NCBI GenBank assembly: GCA_002329465.1
Contig: DCTW01000004.1
Location: 2,933-66,932, forward strand
From: Candidatus Woesebacteria bacterium UBA1430
GTDB lineage: Bacteria; Patescibacteriota; Microgenomatia; UBA8517
Length of the DNA stretch: 64,000 nucleotides
Reading direction: 5' to 3'
The notes beneath the pieces are model-generated. The model had not been told where the DNA came from. It saw only the letters and a list, made by a program, of their open reading frames with translations, and made no database searches. The translations under genes and the position numbers were made by a program. Numbering within the stretch: the first letter of the stretch is position 1; the number at the start of each line of letters is the position of its first letter. Below are positions 4,215 through 18,561 of this stretch, piece after piece.

Positions 4215-5620
4215 TTTTCGGATTTTACTTCTATACCCAACTCAGATAATTGCTTCTCGTCCGCACCGCTTGGAGCATCCATTACGGCGGTTTGTCCTCC
4301 AGATGTAGCCGGAAAAGCTATAACCTCCCTGATACTCGGTTCACCCAAAGCAACATAAATAAACCTATCAATCCCCGGAGCAATCCCGCCATGTGGAGGC
4401 ACGCCGTAAGTAAAAGCCGTCAGCATATGCTCAAACTGATCCCGCTGCTTCTTGCTAAATCCAATAAGTTCAAACACCTTTTCCTGAATCTTTGCATCAT
4501 GAATTCGCACACTTCCTCCCCCCACCTCAAAACCGTTCAAAATCATGTCATGCTGCAGCCCTCTTACTCTCATTGGATCTTTATCCAAAAGGGTAAAATC
4601 ATCAGGATGAGGCGCCGTAAACATGTGATGGCTTGGAGCAAAGCGCGCTTCACCCGATCCGTAGAAATAATCATCCTCACTCTGTTTCGCAAACAAAGGA
4701 AAATCAACTATCCAGGCAAAAGCCAGCTCATCTTTATCCTCTTTGTTTTTTCTCAAATCAGGTTTATCACTCCCGTATTTTTCAATAGCTTCTTTATGGG
4801 AAATTCTAGGCCAAGGAAATTGAGTAATTTTTTTATGAGGAAATATTTTCTTCACTAATTGAGTAAATAACTCCTCCGTTAATCTTAAAATATCCTCCTG
4901 TTTAACAAAACTCATTTCTATATCAAGCTGTGTAAATTCGCCATATGCGCGATCTGCCCTAGGATCTTCATCGCGAAAACAGCGCGCAATCTGAAAATAC
5001 TTTTCAAAACCAGCAATCATCAAAAGTTGTTTATATTGCTGAGGAGACTGGGGTAAAGCATAAAACTTTCCAGGCTGAAGCCTTGAGGGAACCAAAAAAT
5101 CCCTTGCCCCCTCCGGAGTTGTCTTTGTCAATATCGGCGTCTCAACCTCCACAAACTCCCTTTCATGCAGCCATTCACGGATAAATTGCACTGCCTTTGA
5201 CCGCACTCTAATATTCCGAGCCATTCTTGCTCTTCGAAGATCCAAATACCGGTACTTCATCCTCACGGATTCGTCAATTTCATATCCATCGGTTGTTAAA
5301 GGAATAGGTATCTCACCGGCAGGAGATAAAACATTAATTTCTTTAACCTCTATCTCGATATCTCCCGTCTCAAGATTCGGATTTATTAATTTCTCAGGCC
5401 GCTTTTTAACTAATCCAGTAATCTCAATAACGCTTTCAAGAGTAATCTTTTGACTAAAATCCTTAGGATCTAACACACACTGTACTACCCCGCTCATATC
5501 CCTTAGATCGATAAAAACCACGCGCTTATGCTCCCTTATCTTATCCACCCACCCCATAAGTAGAACTTTTTTATCTTTTTTCGAAACGCTTCTTTTTACA
5601 AGTATTCTCTGCATATTCAC
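4211..5620 (-). CDS. aspS: aspartyl-tRNA synthetase, bacterial-type core lacking the GAD insertion domain
   Basis: N-terminal OB fold (VLLMGWVDKIREHKRVVFIDLRD) and class II motifs (FRDEDPRADR, GGGSVRIH, GIAPGIDR). Only about 10 residues separate SDKPDLR from AFAWIVDFPLF, the position where bacterial AspRS carries the GAD domain. Confidence 0.9.
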   Translation of the reverse strand: MNMQRILVKRSVSKKDKKVLLMGWVDKIREHKRVVFIDLRDMSGVVQCVLDPKDFSQKITLESVIEITGLVKKRPEKLINPNLETGDIEIEVKEINVLSPAGEIPIPLTTDGYEIDESVRMKYRYLDLRRARMARNIRVRSKAVQFIREWLHEREFVEVETPILTKTTPEGARDFLVPSRLQPGKFYALPQSPQQYKQLLMIAGFEKYFQIARCFRDEDPRADRAYGEFTQLDIEMSFVKQEDILRLTEELFTQLVKKIFPHKKITQFPWPRISHKEAIEKYGSDKPDLRKNKEDKDELAFAWIVDFPLFAKQSEDDYFYGSGEARFAPSHHMFTAPHPDDFTLLDKDPMRVRGLQHDMILNGFEVGGGSVRIHDAKIQEKVFELIGFSKKQRDQFEHMLTAFTYGVPPHGGIAPGIDRFIYVALGEPSIREVIAFPATSGGQTAVMDAPSGADEKQLSELGIEVKSEK

Positions 5621-7139: not shown

Positions 7140-8758
7140 AAATCCGATACCCTCACGTCCTTTATATTTAGCTGTATTTCCTCATGTCCATTCCATGAAT
7201 TTTTTTCAATCCCGTACACCAAATCAATCTTTCCATCCTCGTCTATTTTTATATCACCAAATCCAAAAGCAATCGCGCTATACTCACGCCCGTCTCGGCC
7301 AAGCTTAAATTTTAAATGTTTTCCATCCTTGCCTACTGCCTTTTTCTCAACAATGCACACCTTTCGCGTCAAAAAGCTGGGCCTTGGATTTCCAAGTCCT
7401 AAAGGTTCGAAATCTTCAATTCTTTCCTGCAATTCCCAATTTATATCATCAAACCCTATCTCCAGATCAACCCTAAGCGTTTTTCGAAGTATATCATCAT
7501 TAAGAAAATCTTTTGCAAAATCATTAAACTCATCTATAAATTTGTCAACATCTTCGCTACGGATAGTAAACCCGGCAGCCATGGGATGCCCCCCACCCGA
7601 GACCAAATAATTATCAAATTTTCTAATACTCTCAATTATATTAAAACCTGCAATCGATCTCGCCGAAGCTTTTGAAAGTATTTTTCCCTTTGAAATAACA
7701 ATACTCGGCCTATAAAACTCTTCAACAAGATTGGAAGCAATAAGCCCAATTATTCCCTCATGAAAGCTCTCGTGAGAAACGGCAATTATTCCACCGGGAT
7801 CCAATGAAACCATTTCCTTTGCAACTGAGTATGATTCTTCCACAACTTTTTGCCTTTTCGTGTTCATCTCATTTAAAAGCATCGCCAAGCTCTTTGCTTT
7901 CTTGGAATCTTTTGTACAAATTAGCCTCAGCGAATCAAGCGAATGACTCATTCTACCCATAGCGTTTAACCTTGGAGCAATTATAAAACCCACATGGTAA
8001 GCGTTAATAGAATCAGTTTCAAGCGCCGCTTGCTCAAACAACGCAATAAGTCCTTCGCGTTTTGTCATAGAAAGATCGGCTAAGCCGTATTTAACAATAG
8101 ACCGGTTAACAGACAAAAGAGGCATTTGATCTGATATTGTACCAATGGCAGCAAGCTCAAGCCAATCACCTTTTATAAGTTTATTTGCCAAAACATAAGC
8201 CACCCCCGATCCACAAATTTTTGTACTGTGAACAAAAGAGTGTGCTTTAGGCTTCTTTTCTCCAGGCTGATGGTGATCTGTAACAATAACGTCAATCCCA
8301 TTTTCTTTTGCATAAGAAATAGCCTCATTTGCAGTAATTCCGTTGTCCACCGTTATTAATAATGATAAATCCGGATATTTCTTAAGCAAAATATCTATAC
8401 TAGACGTACTCATCCCATACCCTTCCGAAAATCTATCGGGTATATAAGGCATTACATTAGCACCCAGCTTGTAAAGAGCCTCCCAAACGATTGCAGTCGC
8501 GGCAATTCCATCCGCATCGTAATCTCCGAAAACGACAATTTTATCCTTTCTGAAAAGAGCCTTTTTAATTCGCTTAATTGCCTCCTCAAACATCACTGGA
8601 TCAATCCCATACTCTTCCAGAGTTATCTCGTCAGGATGTCTCGGTTTAAAAAATTCTTTCCTCTCCTTTTTTGTTTTTATACCCCTGTTATCAAGAAGAG
8701 CATCAACAATGTCATTAGATTTTGACTTATTGATCACCTCCCACTTATATTCCCCCAT
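7136..8758 (-). CDS. recJ: single-stranded-DNA-specific exonuclease RecJ
   Basis: DHH family motifs (VFGDYDADG, ITVDNG, VTDHHQP) plus a DHHA1-type GGGHPMAAG motif. Confidence 0.85.
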   Translation of the reverse strand: MGEYKWEVINKSKSNDIVDALLDNRGIKTKKERKEFFKPRHPDEITLEEYGIDPVMFEEAIKRIKKALFRKDKIVVFGDYDADGIAATAIVWEALYKLGANVMPYIPDRFSEGYGMSTSSIDILLKKYPDLSLLITVDNGITANEAISYAKENGIDVIVTDHHQPGEKKPKAHSFVHSTKICGSGVAYVLANKLIKGDWLELAAIGTISDQMPLLSVNRSIVKYGLADLSMTKREGLIALFEQAALETDSINAYHVGFIIAPRLNAMGRMSHSLDSLRLICTKDSKKAKSLAMLLNEMNTKRQKVVEESYSVAKEMVSLDPGGIIAVSHESFHEGIIGLIASNLVEEFYRPSIVISKGKILSKASARSIAGFNIIESIRKFDNYLVSGGGHPMAAGFTIRSEDVDKFIDEFNDFAKDFLNDDILRKTLRVDLEIGFDDINWELQERIEDFEPLGLGNPRPSFLTRKVCIVEKKAVGKDGKHLKFKLGRDGREYSAIAFGFGDIKIDEDGKIDLVYGIEKNSWNGHEEIQLNIKDVRVSDL

Positions 8759-10125: not shown

Positions 10126-12246
10126 TCATTCATTAAGTGTGCTAAACTCATGGTATGCATCATAAACATAATTTTTGTTCTGGCTCATTACTTCAAAATA
10201 ATATTTAGTTCCCGGCTCAAGGCCGTCTATCTTAAACTCATGGCGCCGGGCTCGCTCCTGGGAAATCACGTCTTGCCCGTAAGACAAATCTCTGCCATAA
10301 TTGATCTTATTGTTTTTTGTATAATGATTCGTCTCCCAAGTGATAACCACATAATCACGGCCCACCTCGGCCACCTTTACGCTTGAAATGACAGTTGGAT
10401 CTTCATCAAAAAGAATCTCGGCAATAGATGAAATCTTAACCTGCTGTCTATAAACAAATTGCCCCGCCGAATCAACCATTGGACTAAAATAACCGACAAC
10501 TCCCCAGCCAGTACTTGCAATAAGATCTGTCGTTGAATTAAATACGGAAGCTATCGCAGTGCCCGACCTTCCAAGCGCATTATTAAACGCCAACATTGCC
10601 CTGCCAACGACTCCCGGAGCTTTTTGCGTCAAAGAATTATAAGTACCGGCTAGAGTCTGCCCCGTCGCACTAATCTGCCTGCCGACAAACGCAAGCGATC
10701 TTTCATTTGCCTCGTGGACAAATCCACTATACCCCTTCCAAACCTGGGCAATAAAAGTAATACCTGACTTTGTAGTACCGACAATTCTCCAGTACACTCT
10801 GTTTACAAAACCACCAAGTTTGGCTAAAAAACCTTCCCCATCTTCAATTTCTTCAGGAATAGAAACTACCAAATCCTCCGCCTCTTTCTCACTTATCTTC
10901 TCTTTCTCTTTCTCAATTCCAATATCGGCCGTATCTTCCTCCTCTTTTTCTATAATTTCTCTGATTTTTTCTTCACCGACAATTTCCAAATTAAAAAATA
11001 TTTCGCTGCCCATATTTCCCGCCGAATCTTTACCCTTCAGACTAATCCTATATTTTCCTCTTGCAAAGTTTTCAGCCGGAGAAAAAGAAAAATCAGAATA
11101 TTTTGCATAAAGCTGTTTGCCGTTATCAATTATCTCCTCGTGCGTCTCAAGCCAGAACGACTTTGGAGTCTTTATATTTACCAAACTATGAATCTCATAT
11201 AAACCCGAAAAATTCTGTTTCTCGATTTTTATCTCAATTTCATTAGGGCCGGAGGCAACTTTGTTTTCATCTTTGTCTCCCGCCAAGTAGTCAATCAATC
11301 TTCCGGAAATAACAGGTCTTACATCGGGTGTTGCCAAGTTCGACGTATAACTTTTCTGGTTTACATACAATTCACCAATCGTTGGGGCTGTTAAGTCCAC
11401 AAAAAGCGTTCTTGTCTCAACCCGCTCATTACCATTTGAATCCTTAGCCTTAACTTTCCAAATGCGTTTTCCCTCCTTAAGCTCCCCGTCATTATTTTCT
11501 TGTACCCACTCGCTCGAAGAATGCGTATAAACGCTTATATAATTATTGTCTGTATCACTATCGGAAAACCCGCTGTATTTTGCCGTATATTTGGCAGTAA
11601 CCCAATCCTCCGTTCTCTCTGCCGGAATATTAGCAATCGAAAAATCACCACTGTCGCCGTTATCAACCTCCAGGCTATAAGAAGCAATATTAGTTAGTTC
11701 ATCACTCGTCGTCTTCCATCTATAAGTAGGTCGAGTATTTGTAGTATAAGTATCTCCCCCGGGGCTATCTAGAGAAAATCCCAATGGGGCAACCGTATCA
11801 AGTGTTATGCTATTTGTGTTCACACCAGGTTCAGAAAAATCAATCCACCCCAAGTCTTGAGAGAAAACATAACCACTAAAAACACCGCTACTTATATTAG
11901 CAGACACATTGGAATTATAATTTGTAAAATCCAAAATCCCGCTCGTTGCGGAAATCTCAGCGCTCCCGCTAACAACTCCACTCGCTAAATCAATAGTCAC
12001 CCCGCTAAAATCCACCCAGCCGATATCTTCTAAGAACGCGTAGCCGGAAAAATTCCCACCCTCGTTATCAACAGTCACGTTTGAATTGTAATTAGTAAAA
12101 TCAAGAAAGCCGTCTGTATTTATCACTCTTGCACGCCCCTTTACAGAAACCGAAGCCGCTGAAACAAAACCTACACTAACCACAAAAATAACGATCTCTA
12201 TTACTAAAGCAGTTAAAACCTTTTTCATTGCAACAAATCTATCCAC
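10126..12246 (-). CDS. large secreted/surface protein with internal repeats and a C-terminal FN3-like domain
   Basis: N-terminal signal/anchor (VLTALVIEIVIFVVSVGFVSA). The module LDFTNYNSNV...FSGY.F..D.GW.DFS is duplicated. An acidic EKEEEDTADIGIEKEKEKISEKEAED linker is present. The C-terminal segment ITWETNHYTKNNKINYG...LEPGTKYYFEV is fibronectin-III-like. Confidence 0.65.
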   Translation of the reverse strand: MDRFVAMKKVLTALVIEIVIFVVSVGFVSAASVSVKGRARVINTDGFLDFTNYNSNVTVDNEGGNFSGYAFLEDIGWVDFSGVTIDLASGVVSGSAEISATSGILDFTNYNSNVSANISSGVFSGYVFSQDLGWIDFSEPGVNTNSITLDTVAPLGFSLDSPGGDTYTTNTRPTYRWKTTSDELTNIASYSLEVDNGDSGDFSIANIPAERTEDWVTAKYTAKYSGFSDSDTDNNYISVYTHSSSEWVQENNDGELKEGKRIWKVKAKDSNGNERVETRTLFVDLTAPTIGELYVNQKSYTSNLATPDVRPVISGRLIDYLAGDKDENKVASGPNEIEIKIEKQNFSGLYEIHSLVNIKTPKSFWLETHEEIIDNGKQLYAKYSDFSFSPAENFARGKYRISLKGKDSAGNMGSEIFFNLEIVGEEKIREIIEKEEEDTADIGIEKEKEKISEKEAEDLVVSIPEEIEDGEGFLAKLGGFVNRVYWRIVGTTKSGITFIAQVWKGYSGFVHEANERSLAFVGRQISATGQTLAGTYNSLTQKAPGVVGRAMLAFNNALGRSGTAIASVFNSTTDLIASTGWGVVGYFSPMVDSAGQFVYRQQVKISSIAEILFDEDPTVISSVKVAEVGRDYVVITWETNHYTKNNKINYGRDLSYGQDVISQERARRHEFKIDGLEPGTKYYFEVMSQNKNYVYDAYHEFSTLNE

Positions 12247-12341
12247 CGTTCATCTCTTTACCATAACACATAATTTTACCCTTTTACAAATTATGTATAT
12301 ATTGATCCTTGAAAATAATTAACCAAAAAGTAAAATGAATT

Positions 12342-12656
12342 ATGGCAATAACAGATAAGGACATAAAAAAACTTAAAACCATTTTTGCTACTAAAGATGA
12401 TCTAAAAAGATTTGCTACTAAAGATGATCTAAAAAGATTTGCTACTAAAGATGATCTTGAAGACATAAAAGAAGAAATCAGACAAGAATTTCAGTTCTGG
12501 AGAAGCGAATTTTACGACAGAATTGATCCCATACTCAAAGAAGTCCAAGCAAGCCGAGAGGAACGAGTAATAATAAACCATCGTCTAGAAAAACACGACA
12601 ATATGCTTAAAAACCATCAAATACGTCTTCATCGCCTCGAGACGTCAAAGCCATAA
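12342..12656 (+). CDS. small coiled-coil protein with FATKDDLKR tandem repeats
   Basis: 104-aa ORF. The 27-bp unit repeated about 2.8 times encodes FATKDDLKR-FATKDDLKR-FATKDDLED, and the rest is heptad-like. No family assigned. Confidence 0.5.
   Translation: MAITDKDIKKLKTIFATKDDLKRFATKDDLKRFATKDDLEDIKEEIRQEFQFWRSEFYDRIDPILKEVQASREERVIINHRLEKHDNMLKNHQIRLHRLETSKP
12384..12460 (+). repeat. 27-bp in-frame tandem repeat, about 2.8 copies (tttgctactaaagatgatctaaaaaga)
   Basis: Copies at 12384-12410 and 12411-12437 are identical. The third copy (12438-12457) is identical for 20 nt and then diverges. Confidence 0.95.
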
Positions 12657-12687
12657 GTCAAAAATGTCAATAACCACTCCAGTAAAT

Positions 12688-12912
12688 ACACACACTACCA
12701 CAAACGAGTATATTTACAATGCCCAAGTTGTGCTGGCTGCTTGTCTTGCCTGCCTCCGACATAAAAGAACCACCATCAACGCTCTCGTCGAATTTAAACT
12801 AAATCTTGAAAGCAACTTGCTCACACTTTGACCGGCTTCCTGCTCCTGAAGAAATAGGTAAATGCTTAGTGGCTAATTAAGGTAGGCTCGTAACCAAGTT
12901 TCTAAAACATAA
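12688..12912 (+). pseudogene. decayed DGR copy: RT 5' stub fused to Avd 3' stub (about 1.3 kb internal deletion)
   Basis: 12688-12730 (acacacactaccacaaacgagtatatttacaATGcccaagttg) parallels 14745-14787 upstream of and into the intact RT. A shifted frame reads ACLRHKRTTINALVEFKLNLESNLL, compared with RT SCRKRKRNTINALKFEQNLEKNLV, and then hits a stop at 12829-12831. 12843-12912 parallels the last ~70 nt of avd (ggctcgtaaccaagtttctaaaaca is identical) but carries indels and an in-frame TAG. Confidence 0.75.
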
Positions 12913-12970
12913 GTCTCGGCGAACGCAACATGCATAGCGGCTCCCTGAATCCTTAGTATTGTTGTTCGTG
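12912..12970 (-). repeat. truncated template-repeat remnant (TR') of the decayed DGR
   Basis: It occupies the same position relative to the avd stop as the intact TR. On the minus strand it reads NNNTKDSGSRYACCVRRD with AAC/AAT-rich codons, against NNNTKDSASRYARCIRRD in the intact TR. It breaks off after 59 nt into spacer-homologous sequence. Confidence 0.7.
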
Positions 12971-12976
12971 AAAGCG

Positions 12977-13099
12977 AAACAGACTAATTTTTAAAAACTA
13001 TCTTCATCTCCCATTACCCCATTAGATAATACTCAAAACAAGATCAAATCTATCATTCAAGTACTATCTAACGGGGTTGAAAAGATAAAATCTTAGGCT
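12977..13099. repeat. copy of the DGR spacer element with an expanded hairpin
   Basis: 12977-13015 is identical (39/39) to 16485-16523, and 13073-13099 is identical (27/27) to 16532-16558. Between the cccc/gggg arms this copy carries 52 nt (13021-13072) where the intact locus has ttt. The insert has its own imperfect inverted arms, attagataatac and gtactatctaac. Confidence 0.85.
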
Positions 13100-13142
13100 T
13101 TTTCAGTGTAGCATATAAAACAACTGATTGGTATAATTTAAT

Positions 13143-13394
13143 ATGCTGCAAAAAATCATTAAACAAAAACCTTACTTGGCCTGGGATATCAAAAATGCGG
13201 GTAATTTATCTGACGAAAGCTCACTGGAGCACATCTTGGCTTATGGCGACTGGGACGATATTCAAGAGGCAGAAAAACTCATTGGGATTTCTGAAATGAA
13301 GAGTTTATTTGAAAAACTTATCCAGAAAAAGAGAAAAAACCTTAAACCGCGTACGATCTTATATTTTCAAAATTACTTTGCCAAATATGCATGA
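13143..13394 (+). CDS. small protein upstream of and overlapping the nucleotidyltransferase gene (putative cognate partner/antitoxin)
   Basis: 83-aa ORF whose stop overlaps the downstream ATG (ATGCATGA, 8-nt overlap). A TATAAT sits at 13132-13137. Function is inferred only from the operon context. Confidence 0.45.
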   Translation: MLQKIIKQKPYLAWDIKNAGNLSDESSLEHILAYGDWDDIQEAEKLIGISEMKSLFEKLIQKKRKNLKPRTILYFQNYFAKYA

Positions 13395-14004
13395 ATCTGT
13401 TTTATCAGATCAACAAAAAAAACTTCTGTCTTTAATTCGTAAATTTTCACCTGAATTTGGTTTGGTTGGAGGAACTGCAATTGCACTTCAAATCGGACAT
13501 AGAAAATCTATAGATTTTGATCTAGCTAAAACTGGCGAAATTAAAAACGACACAATAGCTGATACCATCCGCCAGTTTACACCAATAGAGCACACGCTGA
13601 TCGATGAACCAAACGAACTTACAGTTGTTGCCAACTCTGTTAAGCTGACTTTCTTCAAATATCCCTTTAAAATCAAATTTCAAAAACAGTTTAAACAATA
13701 TATTTCTATGCCGGATTTACTTACGCTTGGTTCCATGAAAGCGTACGCCTTAGGCAGGAGGGCAAAATGGAAAGATTATGTTGATTTATTTTTTATTTTG
13801 AAAAAGTATTCGTTATCAGATTTAGTTAAAAACACTAAAAATATTTTTAAAAACGAGTTTAATGAAAAATTTTTTAGAGAACAGCTTTCTTATTTCAAAG
13901 ATATAGATTACTCAGAACAGATTGATTATGTACAGGGTTATAAAGTAGAGAACAACCTTATTAAAAATAATCTAACTCATTTAAGTCTTCAAAAAACTCT
14001 ATAA
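13387..14004 (+). CDS. nucleotidyltransferase, AbiEii/AbiGii-toxin-like (DUF1814-type)
   Basis: The start is taken at the internal ATG 13387 (MHESVLSDQQKK...), because the ORF-track start at 13309 lies inside the upstream gene. The NTase motif GGTAIALQIGHRKSIDFDL (G-[GS]...DxD) and the overall size and pattern resemble short AbiEii-family proteins. Confidence 0.65.
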   Translation: MHESVLSDQQKKLLSLIRKFSPEFGLVGGTAIALQIGHRKSIDFDLAKTGEIKNDTIADTIRQFTPIEHTLIDEPNELTVVANSVKLTFFKYPFKIKFQKQFKQYISMPDLLTLGSMKAYALGRRAKWKDYVDLFFILKKYSLSDLVKNTKNIFKNEFNEKFFREQLSYFKDIDYSEQIDYVQGYKVENNLIKNNLTHLSLQKTL

Positions 14005-14009
14005 TTTAT

Positions 14010-14269
14010 CTAATAAACATCCTCATGTTTACCGATATGATAGATAAACTATTTCACGCTTAAACACGAGCAGAATTCGGATGCTTCTGTCTACAGATAT
14101 CGACCAGTATTCCTCGCCCCCCAGCTTGTGAAGCCTCAGAAACGGATGTTTGGGATTTTTAGTTATAAGATCAAGCTGCTTAATAACTTTCTTCTTTAAT
14201 GAAGTATTGCCTTTAGTGATTTTTACAAACTCTCGTTCAAAACTTTCTGTAAGCCGTAACTTAATGCAT
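14010..14269 (-). pseudogene. RelE/ParE-superfamily toxin, apparently disrupted by two frameshifts
   Basis: Not in the ORF track. The ATG at 14269-14267 is followed by CAT TAA. One nt out of frame it reads IKLRLTESFEREFVKITKGNTSLKKKVIKQLDLITKNPKHPFLRLHKLGGEEYWSISVDRSIRILLVFKREIVYLSYR, with a stop at 14031-14029. A third frame continues with the family-typical ending YHIGKHEDVY and a stop at 14012-14010. It lies directly downstream of the RHH antitoxin gene. Confidence 0.55.
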
Positions 14270-14271
14270 GC

Positions 14272-14538
14272 TTATCTCTCTAGAAGGTACTCTTTCAACT
14301 CTTTGATGTTTGTAAATTCGACGTATTTTTTTTCTTTGATTTCGCGTTTGGCATTATCCAAAAGCACCCCGTCTCTTGAAATAGAAGAAATAGCCTCAGA
14401 ACGAGAAAAATAGGTCGCCAATAGCATGCGGATAAAATCCTGCAGGGAAATACCAATTCTATCGGCTTCTTTTGCACTATTTTGCAATATACCCTCAGGG
14501 AGATTTATCTTTACTGTTGTTGAGCTTGGTTTACTCAT
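14272..14538 (-). CDS. ribbon-helix-helix type antitoxin
   Basis: 88-aa ORF. The N-terminal segment VKINLPEGILQNSAKEADRIGISLQDFIRMLLATYF follows a beta-strand/helix/helix pattern typical of RHH (RelB/DinJ/CopG-like) antitoxins. It lies immediately 5' of the RelE-like reading frame. Confidence 0.6.
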   Translation of the reverse strand: MSKPSSTTVKINLPEGILQNSAKEADRIGISLQDFIRMLLATYFSRSEAISSISRDGVLLDNAKREIKEKKYVEFTNIKELKEYLLER

Positions 14539-14617
14539 AGTACCAATATGGTACTAGTTGATACCATTGTCAAGTAACAAAGATATTGTGGGAAATACTA
14601 AATTTTAAATTACTCCC

Positions 14618-14634
14618 GTCCGCCTCTGGCGGAC
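14618..14634. other. GC-rich hairpin (gtccgcc-tct-ggcggac) just 3' of the VR' stub
   Basis: Perfect 7-bp stem with a 3-nt loop. In minus-strand sense it lies 12 nt after the stop codon of the remnant target gene. Confidence 0.6.
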
Positions 14635-14677
14635 AAATTCTATTTTAGTCTCGGCGAACGCAACACGCGTAACGACC
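14635..14677 (-). pseudogene. 3'-terminal stub of a deleted second DGR target gene (VR' remnant)
   Basis: 14635-14658 (aaattctattttagtctcggcgaa) is identical to 16600-16623 at the end of the intact target. The minus strand reads ...RYACCVRRD*, against RYARCIRRD* in the intact target. 14647-14665 is identical to TR' 12912-12930, not to the intact TR. Confidence 0.7.
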
Positions 14678-14729
14678 AATATTTTTGTTACAATAAATAA
14701 AATGCAAACACACTCGGGTAAGGAATATC

Positions 14730-14752
14730 CACACACACACACACACACACAC
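14730..14752. repeat. (CA)11 dinucleotide microsatellite in the RT leader
   Basis: Direct reading gives c-acacacacac-acacacacac-ac, ending 24 nt upstream of the RT ATG. The decayed copy has only (CA)3 at the homologous place (12688-12695). Confidence 0.95.
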
Positions 14753-14775
14753 TACCACAAACCAGCATATTTACA

Positions 14776-15900
14776 ATGCCCAAGTTGCTCTCTGCCTATA
14801 TCTCCTGCAGAAAGCGCAAACGAAACACCATAAATGCTCTTAAATTCGAACAAAACCTGGAAAAAAATTTAGTCGAACTTCAGCAAAAGCTTATAAATAA
14901 AACCTACTGTCCCAGTACTTCAATCTGCTTTGCCGTGACCAAGCCCAAGCTACGGGAAATCTTTGCCGCTGATTTTACGGACAGAGTTGTCCATCACCTC
15001 CTGGTAAAAGAAATAGAAGACTATTTTGAACGCCGATTTATTTACCACTCCTATGCTTGTCGAACAAAAAAGGGTACTCACTTAGCAGCAAAAAACCTAC
15101 AAAGGGCTATATTGAAAGTTACTCGTAACCAAACACAGCCTGCATATTTTGGTCAGTTTGACGTTAAAAGCTTTTTCACCTCCATCGATAAACCTATCTT
15201 ATTTAATATGCTTTCCCAAGAAATTCAAAAAATGAAAAAGCAAAAGCTTTGGCAACAAGAAATAAATTATTTGCTTCAAACCATTATTTTTCATAACCCA
15301 GCCGATAACTACAAAACGAAGGGGAATCTAAACCTATTTGATCGCATTCCCCCGCACAAATCTCTTTTCTATGCCGATAAGACCAAAGGTCTGCCCATCG
15401 GCAACTTAACATCACAGTTTTTCGCCAATGTCTATCTTAACCATCTCGATCAGTACATCAAGCACAAATTAAAAGTAAAGTTTTACTTGAGATACGCCGA
15501 TGACTTTGTGGTTTTATGCCAAGATAAATCTCAAATTTATAAATGGCGCGAGCAGATTAATTTCTTTTTACAAGAAAAGCTAAAACTAAAACTTCACCCA
15601 CAAAAGGATAAATACGGCTCCGTTTACCAAGGTATCGATTTTGTCGGCTATTTTGTAAAACCGGATTATATGCTTTGTCGCAAACGAATTGTCAACGCCT
15701 TGAAACAAAAGCTCTATTATTTCAATCAGAACGAAAATGCCGACCCCAAAATCATGATACAAACAGTCAACTCATATTTCGGCCATTTTAGACAAGGCGA
15801 TTGCTTCCAGCTCCGACAAAATATCTACCATCGCCGTGCCCAGAAACTAAAAAAATACGCCAAGCCAGCGCCTAAATATACCCATCTGACACTTCGGTGA
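14776..15900 (+). CDS. DGR reverse transcriptase
   Basis: 374 aa. RT motifs are present, including the DGR-typical IGxxxSQ (LPIGNLTSQFFANVYL) and the YADD catalytic box (LRYADDFVVL). It sits adjacent to an Avd-like gene and a TR/VR pair. Confidence 0.92.
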   Translation: MPKLLSAYISCRKRKRNTINALKFEQNLEKNLVELQQKLINKTYCPSTSICFAVTKPKLREIFAADFTDRVVHHLLVKEIEDYFERRFIYHSYACRTKKGTHLAAKNLQRAILKVTRNQTQPAYFGQFDVKSFFTSIDKPILFNMLSQEIQKMKKQKLWQQEINYLLQTIIFHNPADNYKTKGNLNLFDRIPPHKSLFYADKTKGLPIGNLTSQFFANVYLNHLDQYIKHKLKVKFYLRYADDFVVLCQDKSQIYKWREQINFFLQEKLKLKLHPQKDKYGSVYQGIDFVGYFVKPDYMLCRKRIVNALKQKLYYFNQNENADPKIMIQTVNSYFGHFRQGDCFQLRQNIYHRRAQKLKKYAKPAPKYTHLTLR

Positions 15901-16262
15901 ACAAAATCTCAAACCTACCGCTCTATCTAAAACTTTACAAACTTATTTTGTATTTGTATCAGTTAACAGGCAATCTTCCACGCACTTATAAATACACCCT
16001 CGGACAGAATATTCTGGATTTGGCCTGGCAAACTCTAGACCATATAATTTTAGCCAATAGCCTGCCTAACAACAAAAAGACAACGCAGATCATCAAAGCC
16101 TCAGCCAACTTTGACCAGCTAAAAACCCGCCTTCGCATGGCACACGAGCTTAAGCTTATTTCCCATAAACAACAAGCCCGCCTAATCGTCCAGAATGAAG
16201 AGATTGGTAAAATGCTCTCCGGCTGGCTAAGGTGGGCTCGTAACCAAGTTTCTAAAACATGA
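15897..16262 (+). CDS. avd: DGR accessory variability determinant (Avd-like four-helix-bundle protein)
   Basis: 121-aa basic helical protein that overlaps the RT stop by 4 nt. Its size, position and sequence pattern (LPRTYKYTLGQNILDLAWQTLDHIILAN) resemble the four-helix-bundle/Avd family. Confidence 0.8.
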   Translation: MNKISNLPLYLKLYKLILYLYQLTGNLPRTYKYTLGQNILDLAWQTLDHIILANSLPNNKKTTQIIKASANFDQLKTRLRMAHELKLISHKQQARLIVQNEEIGKMLSGWLRWARNQVSKT

Positions 16263-16400
16263 GTCTCGGCGAATACATCGAGCATACCTGGAGGCCGAAT
16301 CCTTAGTGTTGTTGTTCGTGTTGCCGTTGTTCAGGTTCACGTTCCAGGCATTGCTCTGGCTATTATAGTTCTCCGTACTGGACCAATGGTTGGCAGCATC
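16262..16400 (-). repeat. DGR template repeat (TR); adenine-bearing strand is the minus strand
   Basis: 139 nt align without gaps to 16612-16750. All 15 mismatches are at plus-strand T (minus-strand A) of this copy. On the minus strand it reads DAANHWSSTENYNSQSNAWNVNLNNGNTNNNTKDSASRYARCIRRD, with 12 AAY codons. Confidence 0.92.
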
Positions 16401-16427
16401 TTTTCACCAACTTCTTCTCTAATCTAC

Positions 16428-16457
16428 AACAAGCTGGTTTTTACAAAAAAGCTTGTT
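16428..16457 (+). terminator. hairpin (aacaagct-N14-agcttgtt) followed by tggtttt; possible RT-avd terminator
   Basis: Perfect 8-bp inverted repeat read directly from the sequence. A T-rich tract follows it on the plus strand. It lies 28 nt beyond the TR. Confidence 0.35.
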
Positions 16458-16484
16458 TGGTTTTAATGCCTTTAAGGCGTGGTA

Positions 16485-16558
16485 AAACAGACTAATTTTT
16501 AAAAACTATCTTCATCTCCCATTGCCCCTTTGGGGTTGAAAAGATAAAATCTTAGGCT
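16485..16558. repeat. conserved DGR spacer element with cccc-ttt-gggg hairpin
   Basis: Two blocks (39 nt and 27 nt) are identical to the decayed copy at 12977-13015 and 13073-13099. The hairpin is at 16525-16535. Confidence 0.85.
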
Positions 16559-16577
16559 ACTTCTAGCATAGCGTCAA
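16549..16577 (-). promoter_or_regulatory. candidate sigma70-like promoter for a minus-strand TR transcript
   Basis: Minus strand reads TTGACG (16577-16572), a 17-nt spacer, then TAAGAT (16554-16549). Based on hexamer match only. Confidence 0.25.
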
Positions 16578-16609
16578 AATTATAAAAAATAAATAGTTTA
16601 AATTCTATT

Positions 16610-17644
16610 TTAGTCTCGGCGAATACATCGAGCATACCTGGAGGCCGAATCCTTAGTGCTGATGATCGTGTAGCCGTAGATCAGGTCCACGCTCCAGGCA
16701 TAGCTCTGGCTAAAAAAGTACTCCGTACTGGACCAATGGCTGGCAGCAACATTGGGTAAATTGTTAGCCGCACCATTAATATACGCCTGCATCAGCTCTT
16801 TTTGGGTAGGCAGCCTCCAGTCTGTTTTGACACCACTGCCGTCGTCAAGAGAAAGGTTTAAGCAAAACTCAGCGGCCGAAACATCATCATCCTCCACATA
16901 GGCATTAAGTGGATCCTGATTATCACAGTACTGGTTTGCAGTTCCCAGCGAGTTAAAATTACACGACTCGACCCCCACACCCGGATCTACGCGATCAGCA
17001 CCGTTTACATATTTAAATTCGTTATCTACTTGCTCATTAGTTCTATCAGTCCAATAAAGCTTTGTCCAATTGTCTTGGTAAACCTTATTTGAAAGCAAAG
17101 ATACAGTAACCTCGGGAACACCCCCAGTCACACTGGCTGGAGTGCCCCCCGGGTCTGACACCAGAGTCCAAACCCCCTCCTCATCAATATACTCATAGTC
17201 ACCGCTGTCAATAGCACATGTTCCCTCTGCTTCCTGATTATTATTCGAACACCTATAATCATCATAAGCAATATTTGCCTGAAGCTCAAACATCGTACCC
17301 GTCTTAATAGTTCTATCCCCATTCCCCGCATAAAAAGTAAACCCGCTGGGAACATCACCGGCTGTCGCCGAGCCGTCCGGCTCCCAGGCAGCCGCCTCCA
17401 TTATTCTATTCCAATATGTTCCCCAATTATTAGTCGTACTATCCCAATCCGCTGCATCAGTCACACCATAGTTATCTCCCTTACCGACCAAAAAATCGTA
17501 AGCCTGTTTCAATCTGGAATCGGCTCCCGAAAAAACACCGCCATCCGGCCTTTCCTCGTCAGCAAAGACGCTCCAACGAGCCTGATAAAGCCCGAATATA
17601 CCCAAACTTAAACAAGCCAACAAAAAAAGAAATCTTCTTATCAT
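16610..17644 (-). CDS. secreted DGR target protein with C-terminal DUF1566/C-type-lectin-fold-like variable domain
   Basis: N-terminal signal/anchor (MIRRFLFLLACLSLGIFGLYQARWSVFA). The C-terminal segment WRLPTQKELMQAY...HWSST...AW.V......RYARCIRRD resembles DUF1566 (Lcl C-terminal-like) DGR targets. The VR occupies the last 46 codons. Confidence 0.88.
   Translation of the reverse strand: MIRRFLFLLACLSLGIFGLYQARWSVFADEERPDGGVFSGADSRLKQAYDFLVGKGDNYGVTDAADWDSTTNNWGTYWNRIMEAAAWEPDGSATAGDVPSGFTFYAGNGDRTIKTGTMFELQANIAYDDYRCSNNNQEAEGTCAIDSGDYEYIDEEGVWTLVSDPGGTPASVTGGVPEVTVSLLSNKVYQDNWTKLYWTDRTNEQVDNEFKYVNGADRVDPGVGVESCNFNSLGTANQYCDNQDPLNAYVEDDDVSAAEFCLNLSLDDGSGVKTDWRLPTQKELMQAYINGAANNLPNVAASHWSSTEYFFSQSYAWSVDLIYGYTIISTKDSASRYARCIRRD
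16612..16750 (-). repeat. DGR variable repeat (VR) at the 3' end of the target gene
   Basis: Counterpart of the TR. It encodes VAASHWSSTEYFFSQSYAWSVDLIYGYTIISTKDSASRYARCIRRD. 14 codons differ from the TR, each through A-position changes. Confidence 0.92.
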
Positions 17645-17676
17645 AGCTTCACTTTACAAAATCCCAATAGCAAAAG

Positions 17677-18561
17677 TCAACTTTGCTTCCTGAAACCCTT
17701 CCTTTTTCTAACAAGAAGAATAACTACCAAGATAGGAAGCCAAATAACGCCATAAACCCCAATCCAAATAAGTCCCTTACCGACTCCGATCAAACTTTTA
17801 ACTAGACTTCTCACCGCAAGCTTAAAGACAACGTTCGGCCTAAATTTATCGTCAGGTGTATATGGAAGCGAAAGCTCATCGGTTGATAAGTACAAAGTAA
17901 TCTTGGTTAACTCCACATTCTTTTCAATCGCCTCTTTCTGGCCGATCAACGCATCAATCTGATACTGCAAATTAGTAAGCTCCCTCGTTACCTGCAAAAT
18001 ATCATCTACTTCGCTTGCCTGATCCTGTATCTCTTCAAACTTAGCTTTCGTCTTTTCAAGCGTTTCCAATCTCTCTTCAATATTTACATACTCCTCAGTA
18101 ACATCCTCACCCATAAGCATTTCGTTAGTAACCTTTATCGAAAGGGATCGGAAATAAGCCATAGCCTCATCAAATCTCGATTTCGGCACCCGCACAGTAA
18201 TGGTCGCAAAAGCCGATTCATCCGGCCTGCTATAGCTCGAGCTTACCATAAAGCCGCCGATATTTTTTGCATAAGAAACCGCCTTGTCTCCAGCCTCACG
18301 CACATTACTTACAAGAAGAGACATACTAGAATTCTGAATAACCATTCCGCTCTCGGCGCTTGGCATTTTAATAAAATTATCAGAGGTAGAAGCAGTATCT
18401 CTCAAAGCTACTCCTCCCGATTCAGGCAAATAGCTACCGGCAAGTCCAAAGCTCTGCTTATTATACAAAAAGGGTCTAACCGATTTTGAGTACAAAAAAT
18501 ATGAAACAATAAGAAGAATTAAAAAACTCAAAACTTTATTTCTTTTGATCCAGTCAACCAT
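17677..18561 (-). CDS. DUF4349-like membrane protein
   Basis: N-terminal TM helix, a central coiled coil (EEYVNIEERLETLEKTKAKFEEIQDQ) and a C-terminal TM pair (GLIWIGVYGVIWLPILVVILLV). The architecture is typical of DUF4349. Confidence 0.55.
   Translation of the reverse strand: MVDWIKRNKVLSFLILLIVSYFLYSKSVRPFLYNKQSFGLAGSYLPESGGVALRDTASTSDNFIKMPSAESGMVIQNSSMSLLVSNVREAGDKAVSYAKNIGGFMVSSSYSRPDESAFATITVRVPKSRFDEAMAYFRSLSIKVTNEMLMGEDVTEEYVNIEERLETLEKTKAKFEEIQDQASEVDDILQVTRELTNLQYQIDALIGQKEAIEKNVELTKITLYLSTDELSLPYTPDDKFRPNVVFKLAVRSLVKSLIGVGKGLIWIGVYGVIWLPILVVILLVRKRKGFRKQS

Follow-up and report, generated by a model that had tools for sequence, protein, structure and literature searches.

A probable remnant of a second diversity-generating retroelement unit in tandem with an intact one in a Woesebacteria genome

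The gain, duplication and loss of diversity-generating retroelements (DGRs) are poorly documented because surveys count intact cassettes. A stretch of 64,000 nucleotides from Candidatus Woesebacteria bacterium UBA1430 (contig DCTW01000004.1, positions 2,933 to 66,932; hereafter the window, to which coordinates refer unless a related locus is named) harbors a complete DGR and, just upstream of it, a series of short segments resembling its parts. This raises the question of whether a second unit once stood there and what became of it. The interval 12688-14679 very probably represents a non-functional remnant of a second DGR unit with the order RT'-avd'-TR'-spacer'-VR'/target', lying head-to-tail upstream of the intact one (RT, reverse transcriptase; TR, template repeat; VR, variable repeat; the prime marks parts of the remnant).

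Parts of the decayed unit

When 12600-14780 was compared by BLASTN with 14700-17700, five collinear matches on the same strand reproduced the element order of the intact DGR: 12688-12785 with 14745-14840 (76.5% identity, E 1.8e-15), 12847-12970 with 16196-16320 (80%, E 7e-27), 12977-13023 with 16485-16531 (95.7%, E 4e-17), 13073-13115 with 16532-16570 (86%, E 6e-9) and 14635-14658 with 16600-16623 (24/24, E 2.5e-7). A first-pass annotation had read the interval as a decayed repetition of that order, and the matches, with E values from 2e-7 to 7e-27, confirm it well beyond what chance would give. By homology and synteny they tie the interval to the adjoining bona fide DGR; of a DGR-clade RT it keeps about 37 codons, with a frameshift and a stop. 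A low-complexity artefact was rejected, as none of the five matches is low-complexity and the (CA)n tract forms the first few bases of a single one. No further copies of these segments were found elsewhere across the 64-kb window.

The remnant opens on the plus strand with the leader upstream of the dead RT gene (12688-12718), followed by the RT' stub (12719-12831), which aligns with 14776-14886; 12688-12730 is 95% identical to 14745-14787. The ~35 frameshifted codons first noticed there become ~37, starting with an ATG at 12719, interrupted by a 2-nt insertion at ~12731-12732 and ending in a TGA at 12829-12831. Three-frame translation gives MPKL in one frame and LAACLACLRHKRTTINALVEFKLNLESNLLTL* in another, and the RT' peptide is LAACLACLRHKRTTINALVEFKLNLESNLL. 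The last ~27 codons of avd' follow on the same strand (~12832-12912; 80% identity to 16196-16262, E 7e-27), and the indels and stop reported for them could be specified as a 1-nt deletion in an A run (12860-12861) and two in-frame stops (TAA at 12874-12876 and TAG at 12883-12885). On the minus strand, which is the adenine strand, repeat search and BLASTN place what is left of a second template repeat, its 3'-terminal 59 nt, at 12912-12970, with the coordinates unchanged from the annotation. This TR' stub contains the AAC-rich stretch TTGTTGTT and differs from the intact TR at 13 of 59 positions, 10 of them not at T. At its junction with spacer', 6 nt stand in place of 164 nt of the intact unit.

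The spacer' element, already recognized from 12977 on, extends to 13115 and consists of a conserved outer stem and a long apical hairpin (13017-13076), with 96% and 86% identity to 16485-16531 and 16532-16570, respectively. Its apical hairpin is 49 nt longer than that of the intact spacer owing to an insertion (13024-13072), and the minus-strand fold has an energy of -42.6 kcal/mol (z -6.5). A 27-nt block, GGGGTTGAAAAGATAAAATCTTAGGCT (13073-13099), is identical in both spacers and is the crossover site of a deletion described below. The spacer hairpin exists in three sequence versions, with the stem kept in all of them, and its minus-strand form precedes a U run. In many DGRs an inverted repeat lies downstream of the initiation of mutagenic homing (IMH) sequence, the VR-end sequence where mutagenic homing begins (PMC5758913). 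The spacer hairpin may be such an IMH-downstream inverted repeat, or else the terminator of the target gene. The sole Rfam match, a sub-threshold microRNA model on the long hairpin, was taken as chance.

After 1.5 kb, as the annotation had it, the minus strand carries the end of a lost target' gene (14635-14679, including the 24/24 match to 16600-16623), namely a 12-nt 3' flank, the stop codon (14645-14647) and the last ~10 codons (33 nt), which form the VR' stub (14647-14679). A GC-rich 7-bp hairpin (14618-14634) lies 10 nt downstream of the VR' stop in the sense of the target. The claim that VR' pairs with TR' and not with the intact TR agrees with the counts of identical positions (26/33 versus 20/33), and the 19-mer of TR'/VR' is AGTCTCGGCGAACGCAACA. 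VR' encodes GRYACCVRRD*, TR' encodes SRYACCVRRD and the intact TR/VR encode SRYARCIRRD, two diagnostic residues being common to VR' and TR'. Only some of the seven TR'/VR' differences are at A sites. With 59 nt of TR', 33 nt of VR' and no target open reading frame (ORF), TR'/VR' is a homologous pair that is no longer working.

The present state of the remnant would be explained by three deletions, whose order we infer: one of about 1.3 kb from RT' codon ~37 to avd' codon ~94, one of about 164 nt that removed the 5' part of TR' and the following stretch, and one that removed the body of target'. These are the losses that the annotation had listed (~1.3 kb of RT-avd, most of TR' and nearly the whole target'), and all of them stand. 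Point decay, in the form of stops and small indels, would have followed the deletions. The remnant, on this reading, performs no mutagenesis.

Some further observations concern the remnant and its borders. A 15-nt inverted repeat (14574-14588 / 14677-14691, 14/15 bases complementary) is unique in the window, with 0.2 matches expected by chance, and exactly encloses the VR' stub together with the VR flank and the GC hairpin. The right arm of the repeat starts at the end of the VR'/TR' homology, where the junction of the target' deletion lies. Either a fold-back/template-switch footprint or an operator of the promoter of TA2, the second of two toxin-antitoxin (TA) cassettes treated below, could account for it. 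Three tandem 27-nt repeats are present at 12384-12464, inside a 104-aa gene beside the remnant, and several short-read contigs break there. A promoter/terminator scan gave promoter-like sites that were not above shuffled expectation.

The intact unit

The intact unit (14776-17644) comprises all components of a DGR: an RT, a bAvd protein, a TR/VR pair and an Lcl_C target. The RT gene (14776-15900, plus strand; RVT_1 E 2e-17) shows the IGNLTSQ and YADD motifs in its translation and is followed by avd (15897-16262, plus strand; bAvd PF22296 E 6e-21), the 142-nt TR (16262-16403, minus strand), a structured spacer with the short hairpin CCCC-TTT-GGGG (16485-16570) and the target gene (16610-17644, minus strand; Lcl_C PF07603 E 1e-12), whose 3' end holds the VR (16612-16753), found as the TR/VR repeat. 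All 16 TR/VR mismatches (16/16) fall on a plus-strand T of the TR, which places the template adenines on the minus strand, so that the adenine strand has the orientation of the target and is antisense to both RT and avd. In five related strains, 10-18 sites separate the VR from the intact TR, with at most one of them outside template A. The intact unit qualifies as a bona fide DGR and, judging from VR sequences that vary between strains, appears to be recently active.

In this lineage avd and RT point the same way, and the TR borders directly on the 3' end of avd (15897-16403). In the closest RT relatives, L017 (60% identity; 4424-4943) and L018 (55%; 7171-7524), avd is encoded on the other strand and overlaps the 3' end of the RT gene. 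Because the adenine strand of the TR runs antisense to RT here, RNA continuing 3' of the TR would consist of antisense avd. A stretch of 26 nt adjoining the TR is identical between the live and dead units. The conserved RT leader is directly preceded by a (CA)11 microsatellite (14730-14751), which reads (CA)9 in L003 (1745-1762), a contig of another sample that is identical otherwise, and only about (CA)4 in the dead unit.

Related loci in several states

Eleven related loci were reached via the 90% cluster of the target protein. Seven of them (L004-L006 and L011-L014) harbor the remnant at 99.7-100% identity and are, as far as sequence comparison tells, further deletion derivatives of the two-unit locus. 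The comparison with related genomes proposed along with the annotation therefore showed that the pieces do not belong to an unrelated element; an intact version of the second unit, which it was also meant to uncover, was not found. Among the remaining loci, L015 has a live-type avd-TR-spacer-VR-target arrangement. A scan of metagenome contigs for the DUF4349 neighbour gave one close contig, which breaks off after 400 nt of the target, and three distant contigs in which no target gene is present.

Five loci, one in a complete genome of 901,682 bp (L004; CP055307.1) and the others L011-L014, show what we call state A. In them, the 104-aa neighbour gene and the complete remnant up to 13099 match the window at 99.7-99.9% identity and are joined directly to the flank, VR and full target without RT-avd-TR in between, and the junction falls inside the 27-nt block GGGGTTGAAAAGATAAAATCTTAGGCT of both spacers. 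Between the state-A VR and the intact TR there are 18 differences, of which 17 are at T (template adenine). The adjoining TR' stub and that VR disagree at 16/59 sites, nine of them at bases other than T. The VR thus fits the intact TR and not TR', which indicates that an intact-type TR once served these genomes and that RT-avd-TR was lost. As far as the junction sequences can tell, this loss is most simply explained by recombination of spacer' with spacer.

State B is represented by L005 and L006, whose flanks are 99-100% identical to the window. Here the RT' and avd' stubs are kept up to 12874, the stretch from 12875 to ~16401 is replaced by 718 nt, and live-type sequence resumes from ~16402 on, the right junction lying within ~3 nt of the TR boundary. 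The 718-nt insert codes for a TA-type pair of DUF433 and Mut7-C/DUF5615 (PIN-like) proteins (L005, 11243-11932) that has no counterpart in the window. State B joins the left end of the second unit to the right end of the live one and so implies a two-unit ancestor. In both states, the differences between VR and intact TR lie almost only at adenine-template sites. Moreover, the 1-nt deletion in avd' is present in the window and absent in L006, a sign that the remnant is still decaying.

The main present effect of the remnant would be to supply direct repeats of the live unit, namely the spacer, the VR flank and the first 12 nt of the VR. Homologous recombination between them would delete RT-avd-TR and leave a "frozen" diversified target.

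Sequence exchange among strains is also visible around the locus. Outside the VR, the target body of the window is only 85-95% identical to that of L005, against 99-100% in the flanks; a second target allele is the same in L004, L005 and L011, and L015 is a mosaic of the two alleles (window 16610-17650). Window positions 10154-13099 are 100% identical to L004, a genome that elsewhere is 82-97% identical. Within this tract, which stops at the spacer' junction, lie the DGR remnant, the 104-aa gene and a gene for a surface protein of 706 aa (Fn3/Ig-like). Its identity indicates a recent exchange between lineages.

Alternative readings

The window state (state D) and state A can also be read in the opposite direction, with the gutted single-unit state of L004 and L011-L014 as the ancestral one and the module [TA1-TA2-VR' stub-RT-avd-TR-spacer] inserted at the 27-nt block, the wreck being the landing pad for a cassette that moves from strain to strain. 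The module is bounded by direct spacer repeats, the 100%-identity tract with the L004 lineage, which is otherwise 88-96% identical, ends exactly at the spacer' junction, and the mosaic target body and RT point to frequent DNA exchange at the locus. We nevertheless consider this order unlikely: the state-A VRs were already written from an intact-type TR (17/18 at T), so an intact-type unit was present earlier anyway; the VR' stub of the module pairs with a TR' stub outside it, which is simplest if both once belonged to one unit in place; and the module did not turn up as a free or ectopic copy. Quite unlikely, in our judgement, is that the spacer copies form a reversible recombination site through which the RT-avd-TR core and the TA genes pop out and in and pass between strains. 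Were this the case, hypermutation would be a presence/absence polymorphism (diversify, freeze, re-arm), with the dead unit as landing pad and TA genes that penalise loss.

Several results speak against a decayed, formerly complete second unit, or temper that reading. The direction between states D and A, deletion or insertion, is one that we infer and have not observed. An intact second unit was not found in any related genome, and its former completeness is consequently read from the stubs only. Among 7,443 RT homologs from a search of 5.8 billion proteins, none falls in the range of 60-90% identity with the live RT. The 36-aa N-terminus reconstructed for RT' is 61% identical to the live RT and about 68% (up to 69%) to other members of the clade; being no closer to the former, it does not support an in-place duplication. 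The VR'/TR' evidence spans 33 nt only. Finally, the state-A and state-B genomes might have a DGR that acts in trans from another site. Other searches with the RT gave these results: the exact live RT sequence is not on record, a scan of genome contigs gave only 38%-identical relatives in unrelated genomes, and no RT from the 901-kb state-A genome was among the best 120 RT matches.

The two units are 76-80% identical in the coding stubs and 95-100% identical in the leader, spacer and flank. Such values fit both an ancient in-place duplication with gene conversion of the noncoding parts and the capture of a diverged allele as origins of the tandem.

That the tandem is an assembly chimera of two alleles from co-existing strains appears highly improbable. 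The order spacer'-TA1-TA2-VR'-RT-avd-TR (12986-16291) was recovered in two short-read contigs from other samples, L016 with 100% identity to the window over this interval and L003 identical outside a mosaic RT core and a CA tract that is two repeats shorter, and this agreement shows that the spacer'-TA1 and VR'-RT joins are real. Several alleles of the locus do co-occur in public data, and both contigs break at exact repeats shared with the live unit, beginning at 12986 (a 30-nt repeat) and ending at the TR/VR repeat, so that the join of TR' stub and spacer' on this molecule rests on the window contig and the state-A assemblies. That join, however, recurs in the complete genome and four other contigs, the repeat at the sole unreplicated link (30-47 nt) is below ordinary read length, and state B independently combines left parts of the second unit with right parts of the live one. 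The mosaic of L003 (1971-2556, window 14960-15545) has an RT core of 80.5% identity between flanks of about 100%, with 61 synonymous and 36 non-synonymous codon changes, which suggests that a third, functional RT allele was recombined in.

The least probable reading is that the remnant is retained for a function, such as serving the live DGR or the TA genes as a regulatory RNA, or acting as a second, short template: the leader, spacer and VR flank are better conserved than the coding stubs (95-100% versus 76-80%) and the hairpin structure persists across the three spacer versions, but no VR' is left as recipient, TR' is without its 5' two-thirds, lesions are still accruing (the avd' deletion of the window, absent in L006), state B has lost most of the remnant, and gene conversion with the live copy explains the spacer conservation equally well.

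Toxin-antitoxin cassettes inside the remnant

Between spacer' and VR', at the site of a 29-nt AT-rich gap in the intact unit, lies a 1.5-kb block with two convergent TA-type cassettes. The annotation had described them as an AbiEii-like pair and a ribbon-helix-helix (RHH)/RelE-like pair; both cassettes are there, but the RelE-like toxin is a pseudogene with two frameshifts and the AbiEii partner is not a classical AbiEi.

The first cassette (TA1) starts with an ORF of 83 aa (13143-13394, plus strand), also called in L003 and L016, that overlaps the next gene by 8 nt. It has no Pfam or NCBIfam match above threshold, its weak match being to DUF6922 (E 0.094), and is not recognizable as an AbiEi-type winged helix-turn-helix partner. 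The second gene (13387-14004, plus strand) codes for an AbiEii-family nucleotidyltransferase of 205 aa (PF08843 E 5e-8, 33.6 bits versus a cutoff of 22.5), identified by its nucleotidyltransferase domain, the match covering the N-terminal motif region only.

The second cassette (TA2) lies on the minus strand. Measured against eight homologs of 85-87 aa, which begin M-x-KLRLT and end YHIGKHEDVY, the YafQ/RelE-like toxin gene of this cassette (14010-14269) is split over three frames, one each for the ATG, the body and the C-terminus, and no intact toxin ORF is left. Its TIGR00053 match (E 0.014) is far under the cutoff, a PDB sequence search gave no match, and Pfam returned only a sub-threshold match to Mre11_2nd (E 0.046). 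The putative antitoxin is an intact ORF of 88 aa (14272-14538) of RHH (CopG/BrnA-like) type, with sub-threshold matches to CopG_antitoxin in Pfam (E 1.2e-4, 23.2 bits versus a cutoff of 28) and BrnA in NCBIfam (E 5.6e-5, 23.2 bits versus a cutoff of 60). This cassette has lost its own toxin, and the remaining TA genes are presumably active. The lowest G+C of the window (34.5%) is that of the 2-kb bin 12001-14000, spanning TA1 and the remnant. In summary, recombination and TA turnover are concentrated at this locus, in which TA cassettes repeatedly occupy vacated space.

Significance and comparison with known systems

The locus provides base-level breakpoints of a decayed unit together with eleven related loci in three or four states. 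It thereby offers a concrete route of loss, in which recombination between short repeats of the dead and live units would leave a VR with the scars of adenine mutagenesis.

The prototype of DGRs is that of the Bordetella phage BPP-1, and Patescibacteria (the candidate phyla radiation, CPR) harbor DGRs with DUF1566/Lcl_C targets. The live unit resembles known DGRs in its DGR-type RT, its bAvd, a 142-nt TR/VR pair whose members differ only at template adenines, and the position of the VR, the 3' end of an Lcl_C-domain gene. The remnant has the same order but lacks every catalytic part. Both units of the window have the TR adenines on the strand antisense to RT and avd, with avd reaching up to the TR at its 3' end, whereas L017 and L018 have avd on the other strand.

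With the AbiE (AbiEi/AbiEii) type IV TA and abortive infection systems, TA1 shares an AbiEii protein that passes the family threshold and translational coupling to a small upstream gene; it differs by its 83-aa partner, which is not a classical AbiEi, and by matching the AbiEii model at the N-terminal motif region only. TA2 resembles type II systems of the YafQ-DinJ/RelE kind in having a putative RHH-type antitoxin gene followed by a small toxin gene, one 85-87-aa homolog of which is named YafQ by JGI, but its toxin has two frameshifts and all family matches are under the curated cutoffs.

The closest parallels to the remnant itself are the degraded DGR cassettes and orphan TR-VR homology described in cyanobacteria (Anabaena sp. 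90; Nostoc PCC 7120 all3226), for which it was proposed that the diversification machinery is removed once a variant has been selected (PMC7517822). The loss route suggested here supports that idea. As in the cyanobacteria, DGR components are lost and a once-diversified target persists; the difference is that the wreck stands here in tandem with a live unit, with base-level breakpoints, and that sister genomes show the recombination route of the loss. The locus adds a reconstruction at the level of populations but no new mechanism, and is a well-resolved new example of a degraded DGR, of a kind already present in the literature.

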